Source of the DNA: Rhizodiscina lignyota
Lineage: Eukaryota
DNA: 64,000 nt
Direction: 5' to 3'
NCBI GenBank assembly: GCA_010015805.1
Contig: ML978130.1
Coordinates: forward strand, 868,001 to 932,000
A program made the position numbers and the translations under genes. Below, one piece after another: positions 7,373-63,334 of the stretch (position 1 is the first letter of the stretch; each line of letters begins with the position of its first letter). A model generated the notes under the pieces. The model was given only the letters and a program-made list of their open reading frames with translations. It was not told where the DNA came from and did not search any database.

Positions 7373-8637
7373 AATGAAGACGAGCTTTGAGACCTCCTTC
7401 CGAGATGATCAAGGGCGGCCGCCTCAGGGTTTGAAGTTTTGCGAATTAATTTGAACAAATACCAGTAACCACGGTGGCTTAAACTTTCAGACACAATTAG
7501 AACTATCAATCTCACACGTCAAGATTCCATTTCAGGGAGAGATAATTGGGCCAATCCCTATTGATGTATAAATCCCCGGATCACCGCCCCGCGGAGCGTC
7601 AAACCCCGCGTTGTGCAGGGGTGGGTAATAAAGTAGAAGGCAACCCTTGAACCTGTCTAGGAGATATTATCCGAGAGGCAGAAGGTGATCCATCTACCGT
7701 TAACTTAAAGCTCTAAACATGATCTACGTTTATGTAGCTACATCGTGAAGTCTATCTTCCTCAATTTCAATTCATGTTCACTTCACTTCACTCGTAGAGG
7801 TCCTCATACACAAATAGCTTTGATGATGGCATCTGTGTTCACTGATACAGCATCGTTAATTGAAAGACTCTTGCGCAACTTTTAGACTTTATACTGTCGA
7901 CAGGAAATCATGTTGCGCCTGCACCTTGCGGAGATGGGTATTCGAACTGCTCCCGAAGAGTTACCACGAAGCCTTCAAGCCTATGACGAAGCTCAAGAAA
8001 CTGAATTCTGCTAACAGTAACCTCTGGCTTTCTAGCATAAGGGCGTATCCCGTACAGCTCAGGCTGTGAACGTATTATGGCAATTAAAATCCGTAGCCAG
8101 ATTCAACCCAGCATAGTTCGCTGCCTCAGCTTTAAAGGCCTTTATGCAGATGATCCGACTTAACCGCAGCAATCCGAAGGCACTAATAATTCAGACATCA
8201 TTTGATGAATCTAGGCCGCTAACATAGGCTCGTGATTGTCACAGATATCAGGCGCGGACCAGTAACGATTCTGAAATCGGATTTCTCACACGGGTCAAAC
8301 ATCTCGAGTACGTTCATCGATCCAGCTTCTTCGCAAATGGGCAGTAGCAGCGTAGTAGTCCGTGTCGTATATTCGCTCAATGTCTTTGTATTCATGTAAG
8401 GGAATATTATTGCCCAATTGCGGGTTTAGCTCTGCTGTTTGTCGATGGAAGAAGTTATTTGCCAGTCTTATTGTTCGAGCAAGCGTTCGAAAATAGCAAA
8501 GTCATAAGAGGAACTACTTTTCTGATCAGCAAGTCCCAAACCTGACAAAAGAACGTCATTTATGTTGCGTGAATGCTATTTCTTCCCCAAAATTATTACT
8601 CCGAGTGTGGCAAATAATAAATTCGAACGTTGTAGTC

Positions 8638-9894: not shown

Positions 9895-10927
9895 ATGTCC
9901 GCCCGTATCGTAGCAATTGCTGGAGTGAACGGTAAACTGGCTACACTCATTGTAAAGCACCTTCTTGAAAATTATCCAGAGATCAAGATTCATGGCATTG
10001 CACGCTCTCCCGAGAAAGTGGATGCCGCCCTCCGAGACTCTCCGAACGTTGAGATATTCGAAGCATCAGCTTCCAACACGAGTGCACTCCGCCAAGGGTT
10101 GAAGGGGGCTGAGGCAGCTATTTGCTGCTACCTTGGGAATAATGAGCTCATGACAGAGGGTCAGAAGACCCTTATCGATGCCTGCATTGACGAGAAGGTG
10201 GCTAGGTACATAGCTTCCGACTGGAGCTTTGATTACCGCGGCTTGGAACTCGGCGACCACCCAACGAAGGATCCCATGATACATATCAATGCCTACCTTG
10301 AGGAAAAAGAAAAGAGTCGTAAGATCAAGGCGGTTCATGTGCTGAACGGCTCATTCATGGAAGTGGTAATGGGCCCGTTCAATCCTTTCTTCCAGCCGAA
10401 GGCGCAAGTGTACCAGTATTGGGGAACTGGTGATGAGCCGATGGAGATGACCACGTATTCGGATGCAGCTGTGTTCACTGCTGAGATCGCCGCGGATCCT
10501 AGCGCCGTTGGGTTCTTGAATAGTGAGCTCCATTTTCAATTTTCTTCTGATCACTGCTAACAGCCATTCGAGTCCTTGGGGATAGGAAATCTGCGAAACA
10601 AGTTGCTGAAGCGTATGAGAGAGTCTATGAAGAGAAGCTCGAGCTAGAATGCCTCGGGTCTATGGACGACTTGAAGAGCAAGATGACTGCAACTTTCCAA
10701 CAGGTCCCAGAAGAGCCATACAAATGGATAGCCATGTATTACCTGTGAGATTTTCCCCCGTATCCTTTACAGTGCCTCAAGTTAATGTCCTTTTCAGATT
10801 TCATATGTGCAGTGGAAAATTGTGGTTGAAACCACTGCACACTTCTCGATACCCGGGTGTCAAGCCCAGGGATGTGGAGGCCTATTTCAAATCGCGCTCT
10901 AAGGAGTCATTAAGCAGCCTTCACTGA
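9895..10927 (+). CDS. NmrA-like/isoflavone-reductase-like NAD(P)-binding protein
   Basis: MSARIVAIAGVNGKLA Rossmann start, LIDACIDEKVARYIASDW, YWGTGDE; introns 10523-10572 and 10745-10797. Confidence 0.9.
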
Positions 10928-52154: not shown

Positions 52155-55100
52155 ATGGCTGCATCACACCGGGCCCCGCCGCCATCAGACACTTGGAGGC
52201 CTGAAACATCTAGAGAGAGGCGCGCAGACAGAGCTGCTGCCGAGCGCAAGCTTGACGTAGACCGGGGACGCTCGCCTGTGTCGTCGGCTCGCACAGCGCC
52301 AGCCCACGACACGCCGTCCAAGGCAGTGAGCCAGCCGGCTGCGGAAGACCACCACTCCTCTTCTAAACTTTCTCGTGCACCCTCTCACCACCGAGGCAAA
52401 AGTAGGCATCGCCGCAGCAGTAGAGGACGCTCTGCAACTCTGTCGCCGCCACAAGGGGCTTCGGACGTGTATCGGCCGGGCAGAGGAGGGAGAGGCCCAA
52501 GTGCTGAGCGCACTTCACACTCTCACCGTCATCACCACCAGTCTCCCCCATCAACAAAACGCCGCCGGAGCATCAGCCCATCCACCACTCGCGATCACAA
52601 GCTCAAGCGGAGAAGGAGTAGAAGTTTTGAGCGTTCACCTTCGCGCCCCCGCCGCTACGAAGAGACTTCGCGCAGACACCTCGATCGACCTGTGTCGCCT
52701 CGACCACCCATCTCAGAGCGTCAAACATCTCGACGCATCTCCCCACATCATCACAACAGCTCCACTCGCCGTCGCCGCTCTCCTTCCGTCGATTCATATT
52801 ATCGCCCTCTATCCAAACACCGCAAGCGATCTCCATCTCCCGACCGCCGATATCCCTCCAAGCGAGCGACTACCCCTCGACGAGAATCCCCACAAAGGAA
52901 ACAACATCGGCATAATACATCTGAAAGGGAAGAGAGGCCAAAATCTCATAAAGACCGGTATCCTCGAGACAGGTCTCAGCCTAGGCGGGATAAAGATAAC
53001 GCGGGCCTGGAATTGTTTCCATCTCGGAGTCGCCGTTCGATTTCTCCAAGAACCTCTCATCGAAGAAGATCAGCATCGCCTCTGCGCAAAAGGCGTTCGC
53101 CTGAGAGGACGCGCGTGGAGAGGCAGCGGAGAGACCCTAGTCCGAGGTTGTCGACACAACGAAAACCATCACGTTCACCATCCACTTTAAAATTCAAAGG
53201 CTCCGTAACCGCGAAGAAGGATTCGTCCATTTCGGATAAACCACAGTCGCGTCGACCCTCTCCCGGAGCCGAATCGGAATACCATTCTGACGCAGAGAAA
53301 TCGACCAACGACAACATGAATCCATATCCCATGCGAGGACGTCCAAATCGTCCGCCACTCGACACAAGACAATACTCAAATTCTCCGCCATACATGCAGC
53401 AAAATCAAGGTTCACCACATGGCCAGTCACCATACGCCAACAACCGTGGTGGTTGGGGAGGACAAGGGCAGTACGGCAGTCATCAAGGGTAAGTCTTGGA
53501 ATGAAGTTAGTCATTGCCATGTTTATGCGTGCTAATCTTACGAACAGATCGCCAGCTCATGCGTACTCGCCGCAGCAGACATCTCCATACCAACAATATC
53601 CATCTGCAGGACCATCGCCTCAGAGCGGATATTTCCCTAACCAACAGTATGGTGGCTCACCACCGAACCAGCAACAAGGCGGCTACCCGCAACAAAATTT
53701 CCGCGGTGCTCATGGTGCCTATCGTGGCAACCATACACCTCAGACTGATAGGAGATTCTCAGCACCAACCCAAGCCTATACACCACCAGCCAATAATGCA
53801 CGAGGCCGAGGAGCAGGTCATTTCAGCAACTTGTCATGGACACCTGCCACTGGAAGCAGAGGTGGCAGAGCGCCAATTGACAAGCATCGAAGCATACCGG
53901 CGCCAAACACAGCAGCAGCGTTGGAAGAGCAACAAACTGCAGAGAGCGATGCTGCTGAAGAAGACGATAATCCTTTCAGACCCTCCAAGGATCTTCGTGT
54001 GGAAGACAAGTCGGCAAAGAAGGAAAAGGAGGAAATGGCTCCACCAGAGAAGCCAGCTACGGCAGCTGCCGAATCCACCGGTCCAAAGATAAGCTTTGCG
54101 ATCAAGTCGAAGACTGGGCCTCCACCAGCAGCGGCACCTAAGCCAGATCTACTACAAAAAGCCAAGGACCCGCCTCCACCTCCGAAACCGCAACCGCAGC
54201 TGCAACCACAACATCCACCCCGATCAACCACGATACCTCCGGCGCGTTCAGTATCAGATACAAGAGAACGCTGGGATGCAAGAAATGGGCGGCGAGAGGA
54301 CCACAGGGAAGATTACAGATCCGAGTTCAGACCAACAGGACTCAGACCTGACTACAGAAATGACTATAGGTCGGATTACAAGCCCGAAAGCAGGTATACG
54401 GATCCGAGACCGGCGAAGCGCCCGGAACCTCGTCCCGAACCACGTCCCGAACCGCCGCCAAAGCGCATGGAGAAAGTTATTAGGAAGCGGATAAAAGCAA
54501 GGCCTACATTGACTGATGAGTTTAAGGCATCGGACTCTGTGTATTACAGGAAGCCTGGCAATGAATCCGTCGTTGGCTCGGGAACATATGGCAAGGTCTT
54601 CAAGGCGATACATGTGTATACAAAGGACATGGTTGCCTTGAAGAAGATTCGCATGGAAGGTGAACGAGATGGGGTGAGTACACTTTGACGGGTAGCAAGA
54701 CCTCCTTACTAATACATGCGTAGTTCCCAGTCACTGCAGTCCGCGAGATCAAGCTTCTGCAATCGCTCAACCACGATAACGTCGTCAAGCTGCTGGAAGT
54801 CATGGTCGAGAAGAACGACTGCTTTATGGTGTTCGAATATCTCTCTCACGACTTGACCGGCCTGCTTAATCATCCTACCTTCAAGCTCGATGATGCGCAG
54901 AAAAAGGACCTGGCGAAACAACTTTTCGAAGGACTAGACTACTTGCACAGGAGAGGTGTACTGCACCGCGATATCAAGGCTGCAAATATCCTCATCAGCA
55001 ATGAGGGTCAGCTTAAGCTTGCAGACTTTGGCCTAGCGCGCTTCTACGCCAAACGAGGCCACAAGCTAGACTACACGAATCGAGTCATCACAATATGGTA

Positions 55101-55719
55101 CCGCAGCCCAGAACTATTGCTCGGCGAGACCCAGTACGGTCCCGCAGTAGACATCTGGTCAGCAGCATGCGTACTGGTTGAAATATTCACAAACCATGCA
55201 ATCTTCCCTGGAGATGGCGGCGAGATCAACCAGCTCGACAAGATCTACAACGTCCTCGGCACCCCGACGAAGGACGCTTGGCCTAGCATCGTCGACATGC
55301 AGTGGTTCGAGCTACTACGGCCAGCGAAACGAATCGAGTCAACGTTCGCAGAGAAGTATCGCGAGCGCGTCACACCCGCGGCGTTTGGACTGCTGGAAGC
55401 GATGCTCGCGTTCGATCCAGCGGCGAGGCCGTCGGCTTCGGACGTCCTGGAACATCCGTACTTCGCGAGTGAAGAGCCCGCGCCAGAGAGGGCGGTGGAA
55501 CTGAAGGAGTTGCAAGGCGATTGGCATGAGTTTGAGAGCAAGGCGTTGAGGAAGGAGAAGGAGAGGCAAGAACGGGAGACGAGGAAAGAGAGGGAGAGGG
55601 AGAAGAGAAGGGCGGAGGAGGCGCCGGAGCCGATGCCTGAGGCGAAGAGGGTAAAGTCGAAGGAAGGGGATGGAGAGGTGGCAGTGGAGGTGGAGCATGA
55701 GATCATGATGGTGGAGTGA
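52155..55719 (+). CDS. CTK1: RNA Pol II CTD Ser2 kinase (Ctk1/Lsk1, CDK12-like) with RS-rich N-terminus
   Basis: GSGTYGKV, DG-FPVTAVREIKLL, HRDIK, DFGLAR and YTNRVITIWYR; introns 53489-53547 and 54674-54723. Confidence 0.93.
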
Positions 55720-59525: not shown

Positions 59526-60788
59526 ATGGCGGTCTCCTTGCCGCCTCACATCCAACAATGGACCATGCAAGTGCTTGGGAAAGAAGTTTTTGGGAGCACG
59601 CGCGTGACGCGTGCTGAACGATCCAATTCTGGCTCTACTTCACCAGACTTCGACAACGACTACAAATTCGACCTCGCCAACGAAGAGATCTACCAAACAG
59701 CTGACGAGAAGGAAATCGAAATTGACTATCAAGAAAGATATCTTTCCTCAGAAGAAGACCTTTCACCAATGGAGGAGTTCGACGACAACGAAAGCTTCCA
59801 TAGCTTCGACAATGAGGAGGAGATTATCGAGAGTGAAGAGTCGGACGACGATGACTTTGACGAAGAGAAGGCCATTGAGGCCTATGCCGCCCAGGAGTGG
59901 AAGGCAGACGTGACAGCCACCGTGGTGTCCTTCTATACAGGTAGAGCAAAGGTCGTAGAAGTTCTTCCTTCGCCAGCTTCTTCCCCTACGACATCACAAA
60001 TACCATCAAGAGACGCATCACTTGTCAAGACCGGAAACAATCGCGCCAGGCCACGTCCTCTAATCTCGAACAATCGCGTCACTAGACTCTCCAGTGATTC
60101 CACGCCGCAGATGTCACTCCCTCCGCGTGAGAGCTCTCTGGAGAATGCCAATTCGTTCAGCAACAGGATGTCCAACGTCCGCAATGAACCACAGCGCTCT
60201 TCAATCTACACTATCAATACCGCCACTACATCACCTCCACGTTTCTTCCACAATAACCGCCGTGCTTCCGTCGCAGATCCTGCTGCTTTGGCTCATGAAC
60301 CTTTTTGGCCTCTTATGCCCGACAGGCCTGTCACCCCTGCCACGCCGACCACCCCGACAGCAGAGACTCCGCGTAAGCCTCGCCACGGTCGATTGAAGTC
60401 ACTCTCACGTCTCGGTCTCTTCAAGAGCGCGACAAAGTCGCGTGCCGACGGTCTTAGAAGCACCAGCTCCACTCATCTTCCTTACACCGCGCCTCCGATG
60501 CCGAGCTACCCAGCTCCTCCTCCACCAATTCCCGCACCGCTGACTCGGGGTACCTTCGCCCCCGCACCGTTCGTGAGGCCGCAGACTGCGAAGCTGGTGG
60601 CTCGCGGGGCGGATGAGCGGGATTCGGGCATCTCCGAAGTAGCGGCTATGCTCGGAGGTCGGAGGAAGGGCAGAGGGGCGGGAAGTGATGGTGACGACGA
60701 AGTGACTGATGGGGAAGGCATTGTGCGAGAGAGGCGCGCGAGCAGACAGAAACTCAGGAAGAGGAAGAGTGTGTATGGACTGGATTGA
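59526..60788 (+). CDS. Hypothetical, largely disordered protein
   Basis: 420-aa ORF with CAACAATGG start context, acidic tract, YLSSEEDLSP and KLVARGADER motifs. Confidence 0.8.
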   Translation: MAVSLPPHIQQWTMQVLGKEVFGSTRVTRAERSNSGSTSPDFDNDYKFDLANEEIYQTADEKEIEIDYQERYLSSEEDLSPMEEFDDNESFHSFDNEEEIIESEESDDDDFDEEKAIEAYAAQEWKADVTATVVSFYTGRAKVVEVLPSPASSPTTSQIPSRDASLVKTGNNRARPRPLISNNRVTRLSSDSTPQMSLPPRESSLENANSFSNRMSNVRNEPQRSSIYTINTATTSPPRFFHNNRRASVADPAALAHEPFWPLMPDRPVTPATPTTPTAETPRKPRHGRLKSLSRLGLFKSATKSRADGLRSTSSTHLPYTAPPMPSYPAPPPPIPAPLTRGTFAPAPFVRPQTAKLVARGADERDSGISEVAAMLGGRRKGRGAGSDGDDEVTDGEGIVRERRASRQKLRKRKSVYGLD

Positions 60789-61548
60789 CGGGATACGGAG
60801 AGTCACTCGGATGGGTGATATGACGAAGAAAAACCTTGCGACGCGAGATACAGAGAGCCTGAATTGGACGAAAAACGCGACAGTGTCGCGAGACGACGAA
60901 CATTTTTCCTGATCTTCTTGTCGATATTGAGATACCCCGAACACTCTACTACACATTCGCTACGCCGGCTATGGTTTCCTCGGCGACCCTCACTCCAGGA
61001 TACGACGAGAAAAAGTCTCACTGCTTTTGAACTATCTTGTGCTTGTCTACTACAGGACATTTGGTGTTGTGATGATGGAATATTATGGATGGAATGCGTC
61101 ATGACACAGTTTCTACTACTCGATGCTCCTAATTGGTGGAGCAGTTCGCGGCGTTGGATCACGATTCCCCATTTGCAGTTGGCATCCATGTTTGATTTGA
61201 GTTTTCTCATTTTCACTTGATCTCGGCTCCTACGAGAGGATGCTTGGCAGTTGGCAGTCAAGTCGGTCGCTTACGGCTCATACCCAAGACAGGGTATTGC
61301 ATATGGGTATTCCTCACTCATTTCTCCGATCTTCGATCGCAGGGGGCATGGTATTCACTTTTACCGTTTACGCCAGCCACGAGACACAGATCAGGATAGA
61401 CGAGCGTTTTGACGACCGCATTGGAATAGCGATGAGCGCAATGGCGGACAGCCATCAAGCCCATAAGGCTTGGCCATTCGCTCCCACTCAGGTCAACCAG
61501 AAAGTTAATGAAAAAAGCGAAATTGCCATACCTCCTTCATCTTGTGTC

Positions 61549-62278
61549 TGAAGTGTTTGGGAATACGAGGGCCTAAGCTGCTCCTAGCGCACTAAACGAG
61601 ATCGAATAGGTTAATTCTCCCACACCTGTTCAGGCAGGACGACCACCAGAGCGGCCGTTCAGCCGAAAAGGGCCTCTCGCGTATTCGCGTCTGTCCGATT
61701 TGTCTGAACGCAGTCTCGAATGGTGCGGTGACACTTCCATCCTGGAAGCCTTACTGGGCCGCAACGCCATCGCAATCTGCAATCTTTTTTCTTTTCGTTG
61801 CTGGGGGTCCTTGCAACAACCAAGCGCTGTTTGTGTGATGTATCTTCCCCTGAATTGAATGTTGCGCTCATGGATCTCATTGGGTGCTTATACAGAGGCC
61901 TAAGGGCCTCTAGTTTCTAGCAGAAGAGCCTAGAGCGACTAGCCGTGAAAGCGAAATTCCTGTCAGAACTCTGTATAGCGGCTTGTTGGTTGGAGAAGGG
62001 CTGTTTAGCCGAAACTGGCCCCTGGCCCTGGGTTGGCCTCTGCTTCCCCATCTTGAATGGAGATGGCTGGGTCTTCCCAACACTCTGGGTGCCCTTGTCC
62101 CCACGCCCGGGTGCTGGTAGCCAGCCACGAGCACCTAGCCATGGGGTACCCGGAACAGTCATGCCGATTCCTCCGGCGCGGACGGCGGGAACTCGGGTAT
62201 CACCTCAGAACTCTAAGGGCGATGTGTTCTGCAGAACTTCGGATGCGAAATGAGCTTGCTGACTTCCAAAACTCTTCA
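61549..62278 (+). ncRNA. Candidate large structured RNA (ncRNA or structured leader) upstream of YIH1
   Basis: Dense series of helices with G-U pairs and a possible long-range closing helix; no credible ORF. Confidence 0.45.
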
Positions 62279-62440
62279 AATTTCAACTGCTGACGCCCAG
62301 TATTTTGAGCGCCGAAAAGCTTGAGACACAACATCTCGGGCGGCTGTTTGTGCGACCCCGCCAAAAATAGCTGAAGGAAGAAAGAAGAAAGGAGAGGACG
62401 CGACGAGAAGAGCTGCGCAGAGCGAAATAATGGAAGGACG

Positions 62441-63334
62441 ATGACTAGCTCCACCTTAGAGGACGAGCTCCTCTCTCTCAATTCAATATATGGCGATGAG
62501 ACACTCGTCGTAACCTCAAGCTCCGCAGAAGCGGAAGGCGTGGACGCGGTCCTCAAGCTGCCGTCCCATCCGTCCATCTCGCTCCGCCTGTTCTTCCCTT
62601 CAACGTACTCCGATGATCCGCCCGCTGTGCTCGGGACGCAATCCGTAGGCGAAGATGTTGCGAAGGGTGGAGGACAAGTCGCTGTGCGCGTCGCAAAGCA
62701 CATACTGGAGAAAGTATGGAGGCCAGGCGACGCCTGCATGTATGACCTATGCGAGGAGGTCCAAGATGTGCTGGAGCAGGAGCTGGAAGACGCTCATATC
62801 TCTACGCACAAGGACGACATTGAGAATCTACAGGACTCGGCTGTCTCCCGTGAGGAAGTCGCTGCGCCTCAGCAAGGCTCGCTCGATGCAGCGGCACTCG
62901 GCGAGGCTCCCGCATGGGTCTTGTCAGACGTCATAACGGAGAAGAAATCCGTGTTCGTAGCTCGCTGTGTTGCGGTGTCATCTGTGGACGAAGCGCAGCG
63001 CTGCATAGCGCATCTCCTAGCGACGGACAAACGTGCTGCGAAGGCGACGCACAACATTTCAGCCTGGCGGATCCGCGCTTTACCTGACTCGGCTGCATAT
63101 CAAGATTTTGATGATGATGGCGAGACAGCGGCGGGCGGGAGATTACTAAAGCTGCTACAGATGATGGATGTTTGGAACCTCGTGGTTGTGGTGAGTAGAT
63201 GGTATGGTGGGATACTACTCGGGCCGGCACGGTTTGCGATCATTAATGAGGCTGCGAGGGGCGCGGTGGTCAATTGGCAGACGATGACTGGGATTGGCAA
63301 GGCTGAGGCGAAGGGCAAGAAGGGGAAGAAGTGA
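62441..63334 (+). CDS. YIH1: IMPACT/Yih1 family protein (RWD plus UPF0029 domains)
   Basis: DELLSLNSIYG and FPSTY (RWD); EKKSVF, ATHNISAWR, DDDGETAAGGRLL and SRWYGGILLGPARF. Confidence 0.95.
   Translation: MTSSTLEDELLSLNSIYGDETLVVTSSSAEAEGVDAVLKLPSHPSISLRLFFPSTYSDDPPAVLGTQSVGEDVAKGGGQVAVRVAKHILEKVWRPGDACMYDLCEEVQDVLEQELEDAHISTHKDDIENLQDSAVSREEVAAPQQGSLDAAALGEAPAWVLSDVITEKKSVFVARCVAVSSVDEAQRCIAHLLATDKRAAKATHNISAWRIRALPDSAAYQDFDDDGETAAGGRLLKLLQMMDVWNLVVVVSRWYGGILLGPARFAIINEAARGAVVNWQTMTGIGKAEAKGKKGKK

Follow-up and report, generated by a model that had tools for sequence, protein, structure and literature searches.

Telomerase RNAs (TERs) of the Pezizomycotina carry a characteristic 3' signature consisting of an A-start 5' splice site plus a branch site (PMC3603654; PMC4299874). 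[quoted passage not shown] An alignment of Aspergillus TERs places a U-rich Sm site immediately ahead of the 5' splice site (AUAAGU or AUACGU), and the TERs described span about 1.6-2.4 kb (PMC3592445; PMC3603654). Whether telomerase RNA is unusual in this respect, or the first example from a set of RNAs that one spliceosomal cut finishes, is left open in the Discussion of PMC4299874, where computational searches are described as hampered. The literature consulted on spliceosomal cleavage yielded no example of a non-telomerase fungal RNA matured in this way, which falls short of establishing its absence from print.

RNase MRP and RNase P RNAs offer a second point of comparison. The P4 pseudoknot of MRP RNA is described by a 5' element, gaaAGuCCCC, together with a 3' element, acnnnanGGGGCUnannnu, tolerating no more than 2 deviations or 1 broken pair, and its CR-IV motif, AnAGUnA, sits 0-3 nt ahead of the P2 3' strand (PMC1796607). 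CR-IV of nuclear RNase P has eight nucleotides (PMC13184271). Fungal MRP RNAs are reported to reach 907-2226 nt (PMC5033589), and telomerase RNAs reuse P3-like loops (PMC4993307; PMC13303942), which makes a non-catalytic P/MRP-type scaffold a sensible model. Published surveys of fungal structured RNAs describe 15 motifs (PMC5640933) and 17 motifs (PMC8216456) that, like the locus presented here, are intergenic or lie in leaders in Pezizomycotina, some of them linked to splicing or uORFs. In contrast to this locus, none of these motifs is tied to YIH1/IMPACT, a gene name that occurs 0 times in the main texts, and the 17 structures listed average 48-343 nt.

The window analysed is a 64,000-nt stretch of the Rhizodiscina lignyota genome, which recurs in near-identical form in one sequencing run, possibly its source data, as a single contig with a depth of 148 and zero variants. 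A 1.65-kb intergenic gap (60789-62440) precedes the YIH1/IMPACT gene (62441-63334, + strand), which encodes an RWD domain (Pfam PF05773) and a UPF0029 domain (PF01205). The best named relatives of Yih1 are from Dothideomycetes, at about 50% identity, and three further relatives reach 79-83%. On its other side the gap is flanked by a 420-aa ORF (59526-60788, +) that lacks a Pfam match and contains acidic as well as proline-rich stretches. Farther upstream, a CDK-type kinase domain (54724-55719, +; Pfam PF00069, E 9e-49) belongs to what is presumably, by resemblance, a CTK1-like kinase.

The reading tentatively preferred for this gap, at a little short of probable, is an unnamed, spliceosome-cleaved non-coding RNA of ~710 nt from the + strand (about 61540-62249), with transcription, cleavage, ends, protein partners and function all deduced from the sequence of a single genome. 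A novel lncRNA was among the proposals of an earlier note on this DNA; it stays the leading one, on grounds other than those first given, namely a terminal helix or clamp, an A-start intron-like unit and an internal duplication.

The predicted 3' end is set by the intron-like unit at 62250-62300 (+). It opens with the 5' splice-site-like motif ATGAGC (62250-62255), cleavage before which would leave a 3' end at 62249, and it ends with a branch site, TGCTGAC, and a CAG 3' splice site, both recovered by pattern scan (62288-62300). The unit is 51 nt long, its branch A (62293) lies 43 nt from the 5' site, the CAG occupies 62298-62300, and AG is absent between the 5' site and the branch and 3' sites. 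The branch A is unpaired with p 0.88-0.98. The sequence AATGAGCTTGC, formerly labelled CR-V-like, is better read as this 5' splice site plus the start of the intron. GTGAGC opens 3 of the 10 GT units in the window, and the distance from 5' site to branch is 37-46 nt in 9 of the 10; with G at the first position, the 62250 unit would by its sequence be an ordinary intron for its genome. Its U1 match is 4/9, at the low end of the 4-7 scored by seven GT units. Three very short GT units of 41-50 nt were also seen in the window, at 10523 and 28365 (+) and 21484 (-), each with the branch fused to the 3' site and ending CTRACAG.

Units of the 62250 type that lack an initial G are rare: 3 x 1192 kb of strand contains 65 beginning with A, C or T, or ~0.018 per kb per first base. 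Under a strict definition (strong branch site, length <=62, low G), set after the 62250 unit had been seen, 2 of 55 distinct non-G units qualify, against 6 of 46 GT units. The main rival, somewhat unlikely in itself, is that the gap is ordinary intergenic DNA made up of a YIH1 promoter and 5' leader, in which helices are expected at 54-64% GC and the A-start unit arose by chance or is a decayed intron. Consistent with this, three further A-start units occur in the 64-kb window, at least one of them antisense to a long ORF.

The clamp joins 61537-61567 to 62223-62253 (+) through 29 pairs, 8 of them G-U, at -29.2 kcal/mol on the + strand and -11.3 kcal/mol on the - strand. Its 13-bp core, with 61542-61554 as 5' strand and an end at 62248, keeps p 0.98-0.99 whether the RNA is folded as 61540-62249 or as 61500-62345, and its final four pairs extend into the 5' splice site. 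Among the compact long-range helices of the gap, the clamp ranks first on the + strand. The terminal helix originally proposed shares the same 5' strand; it can pair, but at only -12.0 kcal/mol and with p 0.00 once flanks are included. Set against shuffled sequences, the clamp is matched in 6 of 300 by pair count and in 147 of 182 by energy, the latter being unexceptional and in line with ordinary DNA. The clamp vanishes, with a change of partners, if the fold begins at 61400, that is, with 140 extra upstream bases. Rich in U and G, its 5' strand can also pair with two weaker partners farther on, at -13.7 and -22.2 kcal/mol, which inflates the pair counts. The third of its partners, 62312-62334, lies past the 3' splice site; pairing with 61539-61561 over 23 nt (78% complementary, -22 kcal/mol), it may act as a switch in the precursor. 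A loose duplex statistic is uninformative, being reached by 19 of 55 shuffles. Taken alone, the clamp is modest evidence.

The position of the two features counts against ordinary DNA. With the clamp core stopping at 62248 and the unit starting at 62250, one base separates the best non-G intron mimic from where the gap's best compact helix ends. Among 12,650 random anchors, 58 have a helix that stops within 8 nt of the site and scores as high by pair count; 850 do so by energy, again an unexceptional figure, and 36 by both measures. The 62250 unit ranks first among 17 A-start units in this respect; a T-start control unit (the identical pair L029/L030, + 4227) has a longer, higher-scoring anchored helix. 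The chance of finding the unit at the helix end is roughly estimated at ~1.4e-4, or ~0.004 allowing for some 30 features examined, and an estimated 0.1-3 such coincidences would arise by chance per 35-Mb genome. The p values for clamp and unit are post hoc, as many motif types were examined before the unit was found.

The same features would also fit a long 5' leader of YIH1 that carries a regulatory AT-AG intron, an improbable alternative; a structured YIH1 leader had been among the earlier proposals too, and keeps some probability. Its cleavage, or its retention with a 24-codon uORF left in place, would lower Yih1, while the clamp 5' strand would switch between three partners and thereby hide or expose the 5' splice site. 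The YIH1 start codon follows the candidate 3' splice site at a distance of 140 nt, and the uORF (62250-62324, +), whose ATG coincides with the A-start splice site, ends 116 nt before that codon. In the precursor fold, pairs 61537-40/62250-53 cover the 5' site with p 0.91-0.97. The Discussion of PMC4299874 allows that cleavage may compete with mRNA splicing. In L021, a distant relative, a GT-AG intron-like unit of 50 nt is located 98 nt upstream of the YIH1 match and may be a 5' leader intron. However, a 900-nt leader with 12 upstream ATGs would translate poorly, and among 69 YIH1 loci with 400 nt of upstream sequence there is 1 distinct A-start unit (L046/L047), which is dissimilar to that at 62250.

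Like the 3' end of a Pezizomycotina TER, the 62250-62300 unit combines an A at intron position 1, a branch site ~40 nt on and a 3' splice site, here with the variant hexamer AUGAGC, and it stands directly behind a long structured non-coding stretch. By eye, its spacing from 5' site to branch is similar to that of Aspergillus TERs. In contrast to Aspergillus TER, AUGAGC has a weaker U1 match than AUA(A/C)GU, the terminal helix reaches the cut, and an Sm site is absent: a pattern scan of the gap detects no Sm pattern, and no U run precedes 62250. The lack of a TAACCC template, which would serve a TTAGGG-type repeat, was remarked on earlier and is borne out on both strands of 60789-62440, where no 6-mer rotation occurs. 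Inspection by eye gave no match to the three-way junction/P6.1 block of the Aspergillus TER alignment and no telomerase-type pseudoknot partner for the T tract at 61783-61796 (+; T6 at 61785), which is seen directly in the sequence, and Rfam gave no telomerase match. At ~0.7 kb, the stretch is also too short by the standard of the 1.6-2.4 kb TERs described in PMC3592445 and PMC3603654. Despite the shared 3' signature published for Pezizomycotina TERs, it is thus very improbable that the locus encodes a telomerase RNA or the 3' part of one.

In its layout the putative RNA resembles RNase MRP RNA (RF00030; PMC1796607; PMC13184271). The terminal clamp takes the place of P1, an exact CR-IV (62155-62161, +; motif as defined in PMC1796607) lies 3 nt before a strand (62165-62172) that forms a P2-like helix of 7-8 bp with 61559-61567, and a possible GARAR pentaloop sits at 61665-61669. 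The CR-IV/P2 arrangement, which agrees with the published placement and was spotted by eye before testing, is reached by 5 of 1000 shuffles with Watson-Crick pairs and by 20 of 1000 with G-U allowed, and argues against ordinary DNA. The inner pairs of the clamp are in competition with this P2-like helix. The pentaloop is about 100 nt in and closed by just 2 pairs; 117 of 2000 shuffles place one as well.

Other features differ from MRP RNA. There is no CR-I/CR-V P4 with a bulged U, P3 appears unfavoured, P8 would have 2 pairs, an internal duplication is present, and there is no Rfam score. The earlier note had found no proper CR-I/P4 partner, in agreement with the pattern scan of 60789-62440, where the closest approach to the MRP P4 descriptor on either strand has 4 deviations plus 1 broken pair. 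A P3 helix-loop-helix can be drawn at 61578-61637, at -0.3 kcal/mol versus -10.9 kcal/mol for the local minimum (z -0.12), and hand-drawn P3 folds lie 10-29 kcal/mol above that minimum. The comparison with nuclear RNase P RNA (RF00009) yields a terminal helix at the 3' end as a likeness, set against a P4/CR-V descriptor that performs at chance: the RNase P consensus with bulged U has a score reached by 91 of 150 shuffles of the unspliced sequence and by 150 of 150 with the intron removed. By eye, the motif before the P2-like strand is of the 6-nt MRP type, not the eight-nucleotide RNase P form. A CR-I-like 7-mer at 61953 is what we take to be a likeness to RNase P. Searches of Rfam, the check suggested for a P/MRP-type RNA, returned no P/MRP match to the window, its sub-regions or the end fragments, whether at gathering thresholds or with E allowed up to 10, a negative that lacks a Pezizomycotina P or MRP sequence as positive control.

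Membership of a divergent RNase MRP/P class, as once proposed, is thus not upheld, given the P4, RNase P and Rfam results. A true catalytic RNA of the RNase MRP (or RNase P) kind that has diverged very far, its variable domain enlarged by internal duplication, is rated as quite improbable. P1, P2, a P3-position hairpin, the GARAR loop, CR-IV and P2' do occur in fitting order, and P4-like positions can form helices, for example 61647-53/62225-31 with 7/7 pairs. Against them stand the deviant P4, the RNase P descriptor at chance, the absence of Rfam P/MRP matches and the cost of P3. The reading keeps what standing it has because fungal MRP RNAs can be as long as PMC5033589 reports and because of the missing Rfam positive control. 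By the tests run, the putative RNA resembles telomerase RNA at its 3' end and MRP RNA in its layout, and is a member of neither group.

The body of the preferred spliceosome-cleaved RNA probably contains a decayed internal duplication. Unit A (61563-61769, +) aligns locally to unit B (61890-62108, +), which also folds as a rod at 61893-62042 (outer helix p 0.84), and the alignment score is reached by 5 of 1000 shuffles. An unbiased split test is equalled by 4 of 1000 shuffles within 61540-62249, by 39 of 543 over the whole intergenic gap and by 4 of 90 real window tiles; the value for the whole gap, p 0.07, is one that ordinary DNA could give. The units share a module of ~60 nt, present as copy A at 61653-61710 (+), which has its 22-nt core at 61653 and includes the GARAR pentaloop, and as copy B at 61999-62059 (+), which has consensus pairs in common with it. 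The core pattern, built from these two copies, occurs 2 times in the 64-kb window and 0 times in shuffles. In the consensus, 13 pairs are kept in both copies, with 6 one-sided C/U changes and 1 double change. This shared structure is not significant, as fair simulations of neutral change give p 0.29-0.85, and the covariation is not counted as evidence in spite of its good look on the consensus structure. The consensus fold scores similarly on both strands (19/1000 and 16/1000). Elsewhere in the window, 710-nt tiles at 8521, 40471 and 41891 contain strong internal repeats, with self-alignment scores of 166-248.

The overall folding of the region is less distinctive. All 29 short motifs checked, mostly those of the earlier note, were found within 61500-62345, where it had placed them or nearby, and every helix written out for checking can pair. 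Its description of 61549-62278 as dense, strand-specific structure does not hold, as folding is near chance and the minus strand does no worse than the plus. For this interval z is -1.13 on the + strand (5 of 20 shuffles equal it) and -2.37 on the - strand (0 of 20); with ends tuned to 61537-62253 it is -1.97 (1 of 52 shuffles) and -1.93 (3 of 60), respectively. Values of about -1 to -2 on both strands fit ordinary DNA. Among 43 sliding 120-nt windows, the best within the region has z -2.5, compared with -2.9 for an upstream window and -2.5 for one in YIH1 coding sequence. A preference for the + strand survives for the 61537-67/62223-53 clamp only and is lost for the region as a whole. With flanks, several of the quoted helices are nearly absent from the ensemble, including TATACAGAG (p 0.00), TTTAGCC (0.00), GTTGG (0.00), CGT-GAAA (0.04) and CAGAAC (0.02), as is the old terminal helix; CTTCCA (0.91), GGGTGCT (0.90) and the 11-bp helix (0.62) persist. 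A stable hairpin domain at 62084-62154 (+), with a 12-bp outer and a 7-bp inner helix, contains the strongest ungapped helix (-25.9 kcal/mol) and has a local z of -1.75. An ungapped helix of 13/15 pairs, seen by eye between 61589-61603 and 61873-61887 (+), encloses a 270-nt subdomain with the T tract.

Transcription would probably depend on Pol II. A patch at 61501-61541 (+), A-rich and then pyrimidine-rich (in 20-nt bins, GC 0.30 followed by pyrimidine 0.65), is a possible Pol II start region by its composition; a pattern scan found no TATA match in 60789-62440. The same kind of scan located no Pol III A box in the gap, and a Pol III terminator at the T tract would conflict with a single 710-nt Pol III RNA.

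Other RNA classes were considered and set aside. No box C and box D lie 60-150 nt apart with a terminal stem, as a box C/D snoRNA or cluster would have: a box C-like element at 61835 is only 15 nt from a CTGA at 61850, and the snoR60 match scores 16 bits against a cut-off of 40. An exact box C at 61069-61075 (+) has no CTGA before 61548, none within 470 nt. For snR30/U17, the motif scan gave no m2 on the + strand within the region and m1-like elements only at 2 mismatches. The helix 8 SRP54 motif of fungal SRP RNA had no pattern match and Rfam no SRP match, and no tRNA was found. A transposon or solo LTR with TG...CA ends was rejected, there being no target-site duplication by eye and a single contig. 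Inspection by eye for a group II domain V, a tetraloop receptor, an ENE and a telomerase pseudoknot gave nothing convincing. Rfam at gathering thresholds returned 0 matches in the 64-kb window, and E-value scans of sub-regions gave sub-threshold matches only, of 9-19 bits.

Relatives were sought in the best 80 of 411 YIH1 loci from metagenomes, with Yih1 protein identities of 42-53%. Upstream DNA of these 80 loci gave a best blastn E of 0.73 and no nhmmer match, a covariance model of the module had a best outside match of E 0.69 among them, and the core pattern occurs in 0 of 83 loci. Rfam at gathering returned 0 matches in 12 of the 80. The want of a conserved match agrees with ordinary DNA, and weighs little since these loci are too distant. 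No YIH1 was found in viral and prokaryote collections; the core pattern was found 0 times in prokaryote genomes and in 1 viral match of 11.4 bits. A CR-IV/CR-V-like pattern occurs in three viral stretches, of which the one examined (L081) resembles phage coding DNA and is taken as chance. Three open frames used as protein queries found no relative, a weak argument against a hidden coding gene. A 103-codon ORF (61240-61551, +) ends at the 5' end of the clamp and overlaps an Rfam Sphinx_2 match (18 bits, E 2.3) that is probably chance.

The preferred reading can be assembled into a sequence of events. A + strand RNA of ~710 nt would be transcribed, its ends at 61537-61567 and 62223-62253 pairing as a long, G-U-rich helix, and the precursor would continue into the 51-nt intron-like unit with A first. 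In splicing step one, branch A 62293 would attack the 62249/62250 junction, and the spliceosome would then stall before the second step owing to the A at intron position 1, the block being that reported in PMC4299874. The upstream RNA would be released with a 3' end flush with the terminal helix, which would protect it in place of an Sm site. The RNA body, with its duplicated module and its echoes of P2, CR-IV and GARAR, would most likely act as an RNase MRP/P-type scaffold for proteins, not as a catalyst.

This reading is supported by the rarity of the unit, its coincidence with the helix, the strand specificity of the clamp, the branch spacing, the duplication and the P2/CR-IV fit. It is weakened by the regional z values on both strands, the unremarkable clamp energy and the loss of the clamp with added upstream bases, and further by the weak ATGAGC, the missing Sm site, the T-start control and the non-significant module structure. 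A more specific proposal, and a long shot, is a third RNase P/MRP-family RNA of Dothideomycetes: an MRP-derived scaffold in which P1, P2, CR-IV and GARAR would have survived, the catalytic P4 motifs been lost and the inner domain been duplicated, with a 3' end made by one cut of the spliceosome at an A-start site.

Under the chance reading there is nothing out of the ordinary about the locus. If the MRP-derived scaffold is real, it could titrate or redirect Pop1, Pop6 and Pop7 beside a Gcn2 regulator, and it would be the first non-telomerase RNA with a single-cut spliceosomal 3' end described in the literature consulted. Three predictions make the 62250 locus a precise test of the one-cut RNA question: the 3' end should fall at 62249, a lariat should form at A62293, and the RNA should depend on the first base of the unit. 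The search rule, an A-start 5' splice site at which a long terminal helix stops, may be applied genome-wide in fungi.
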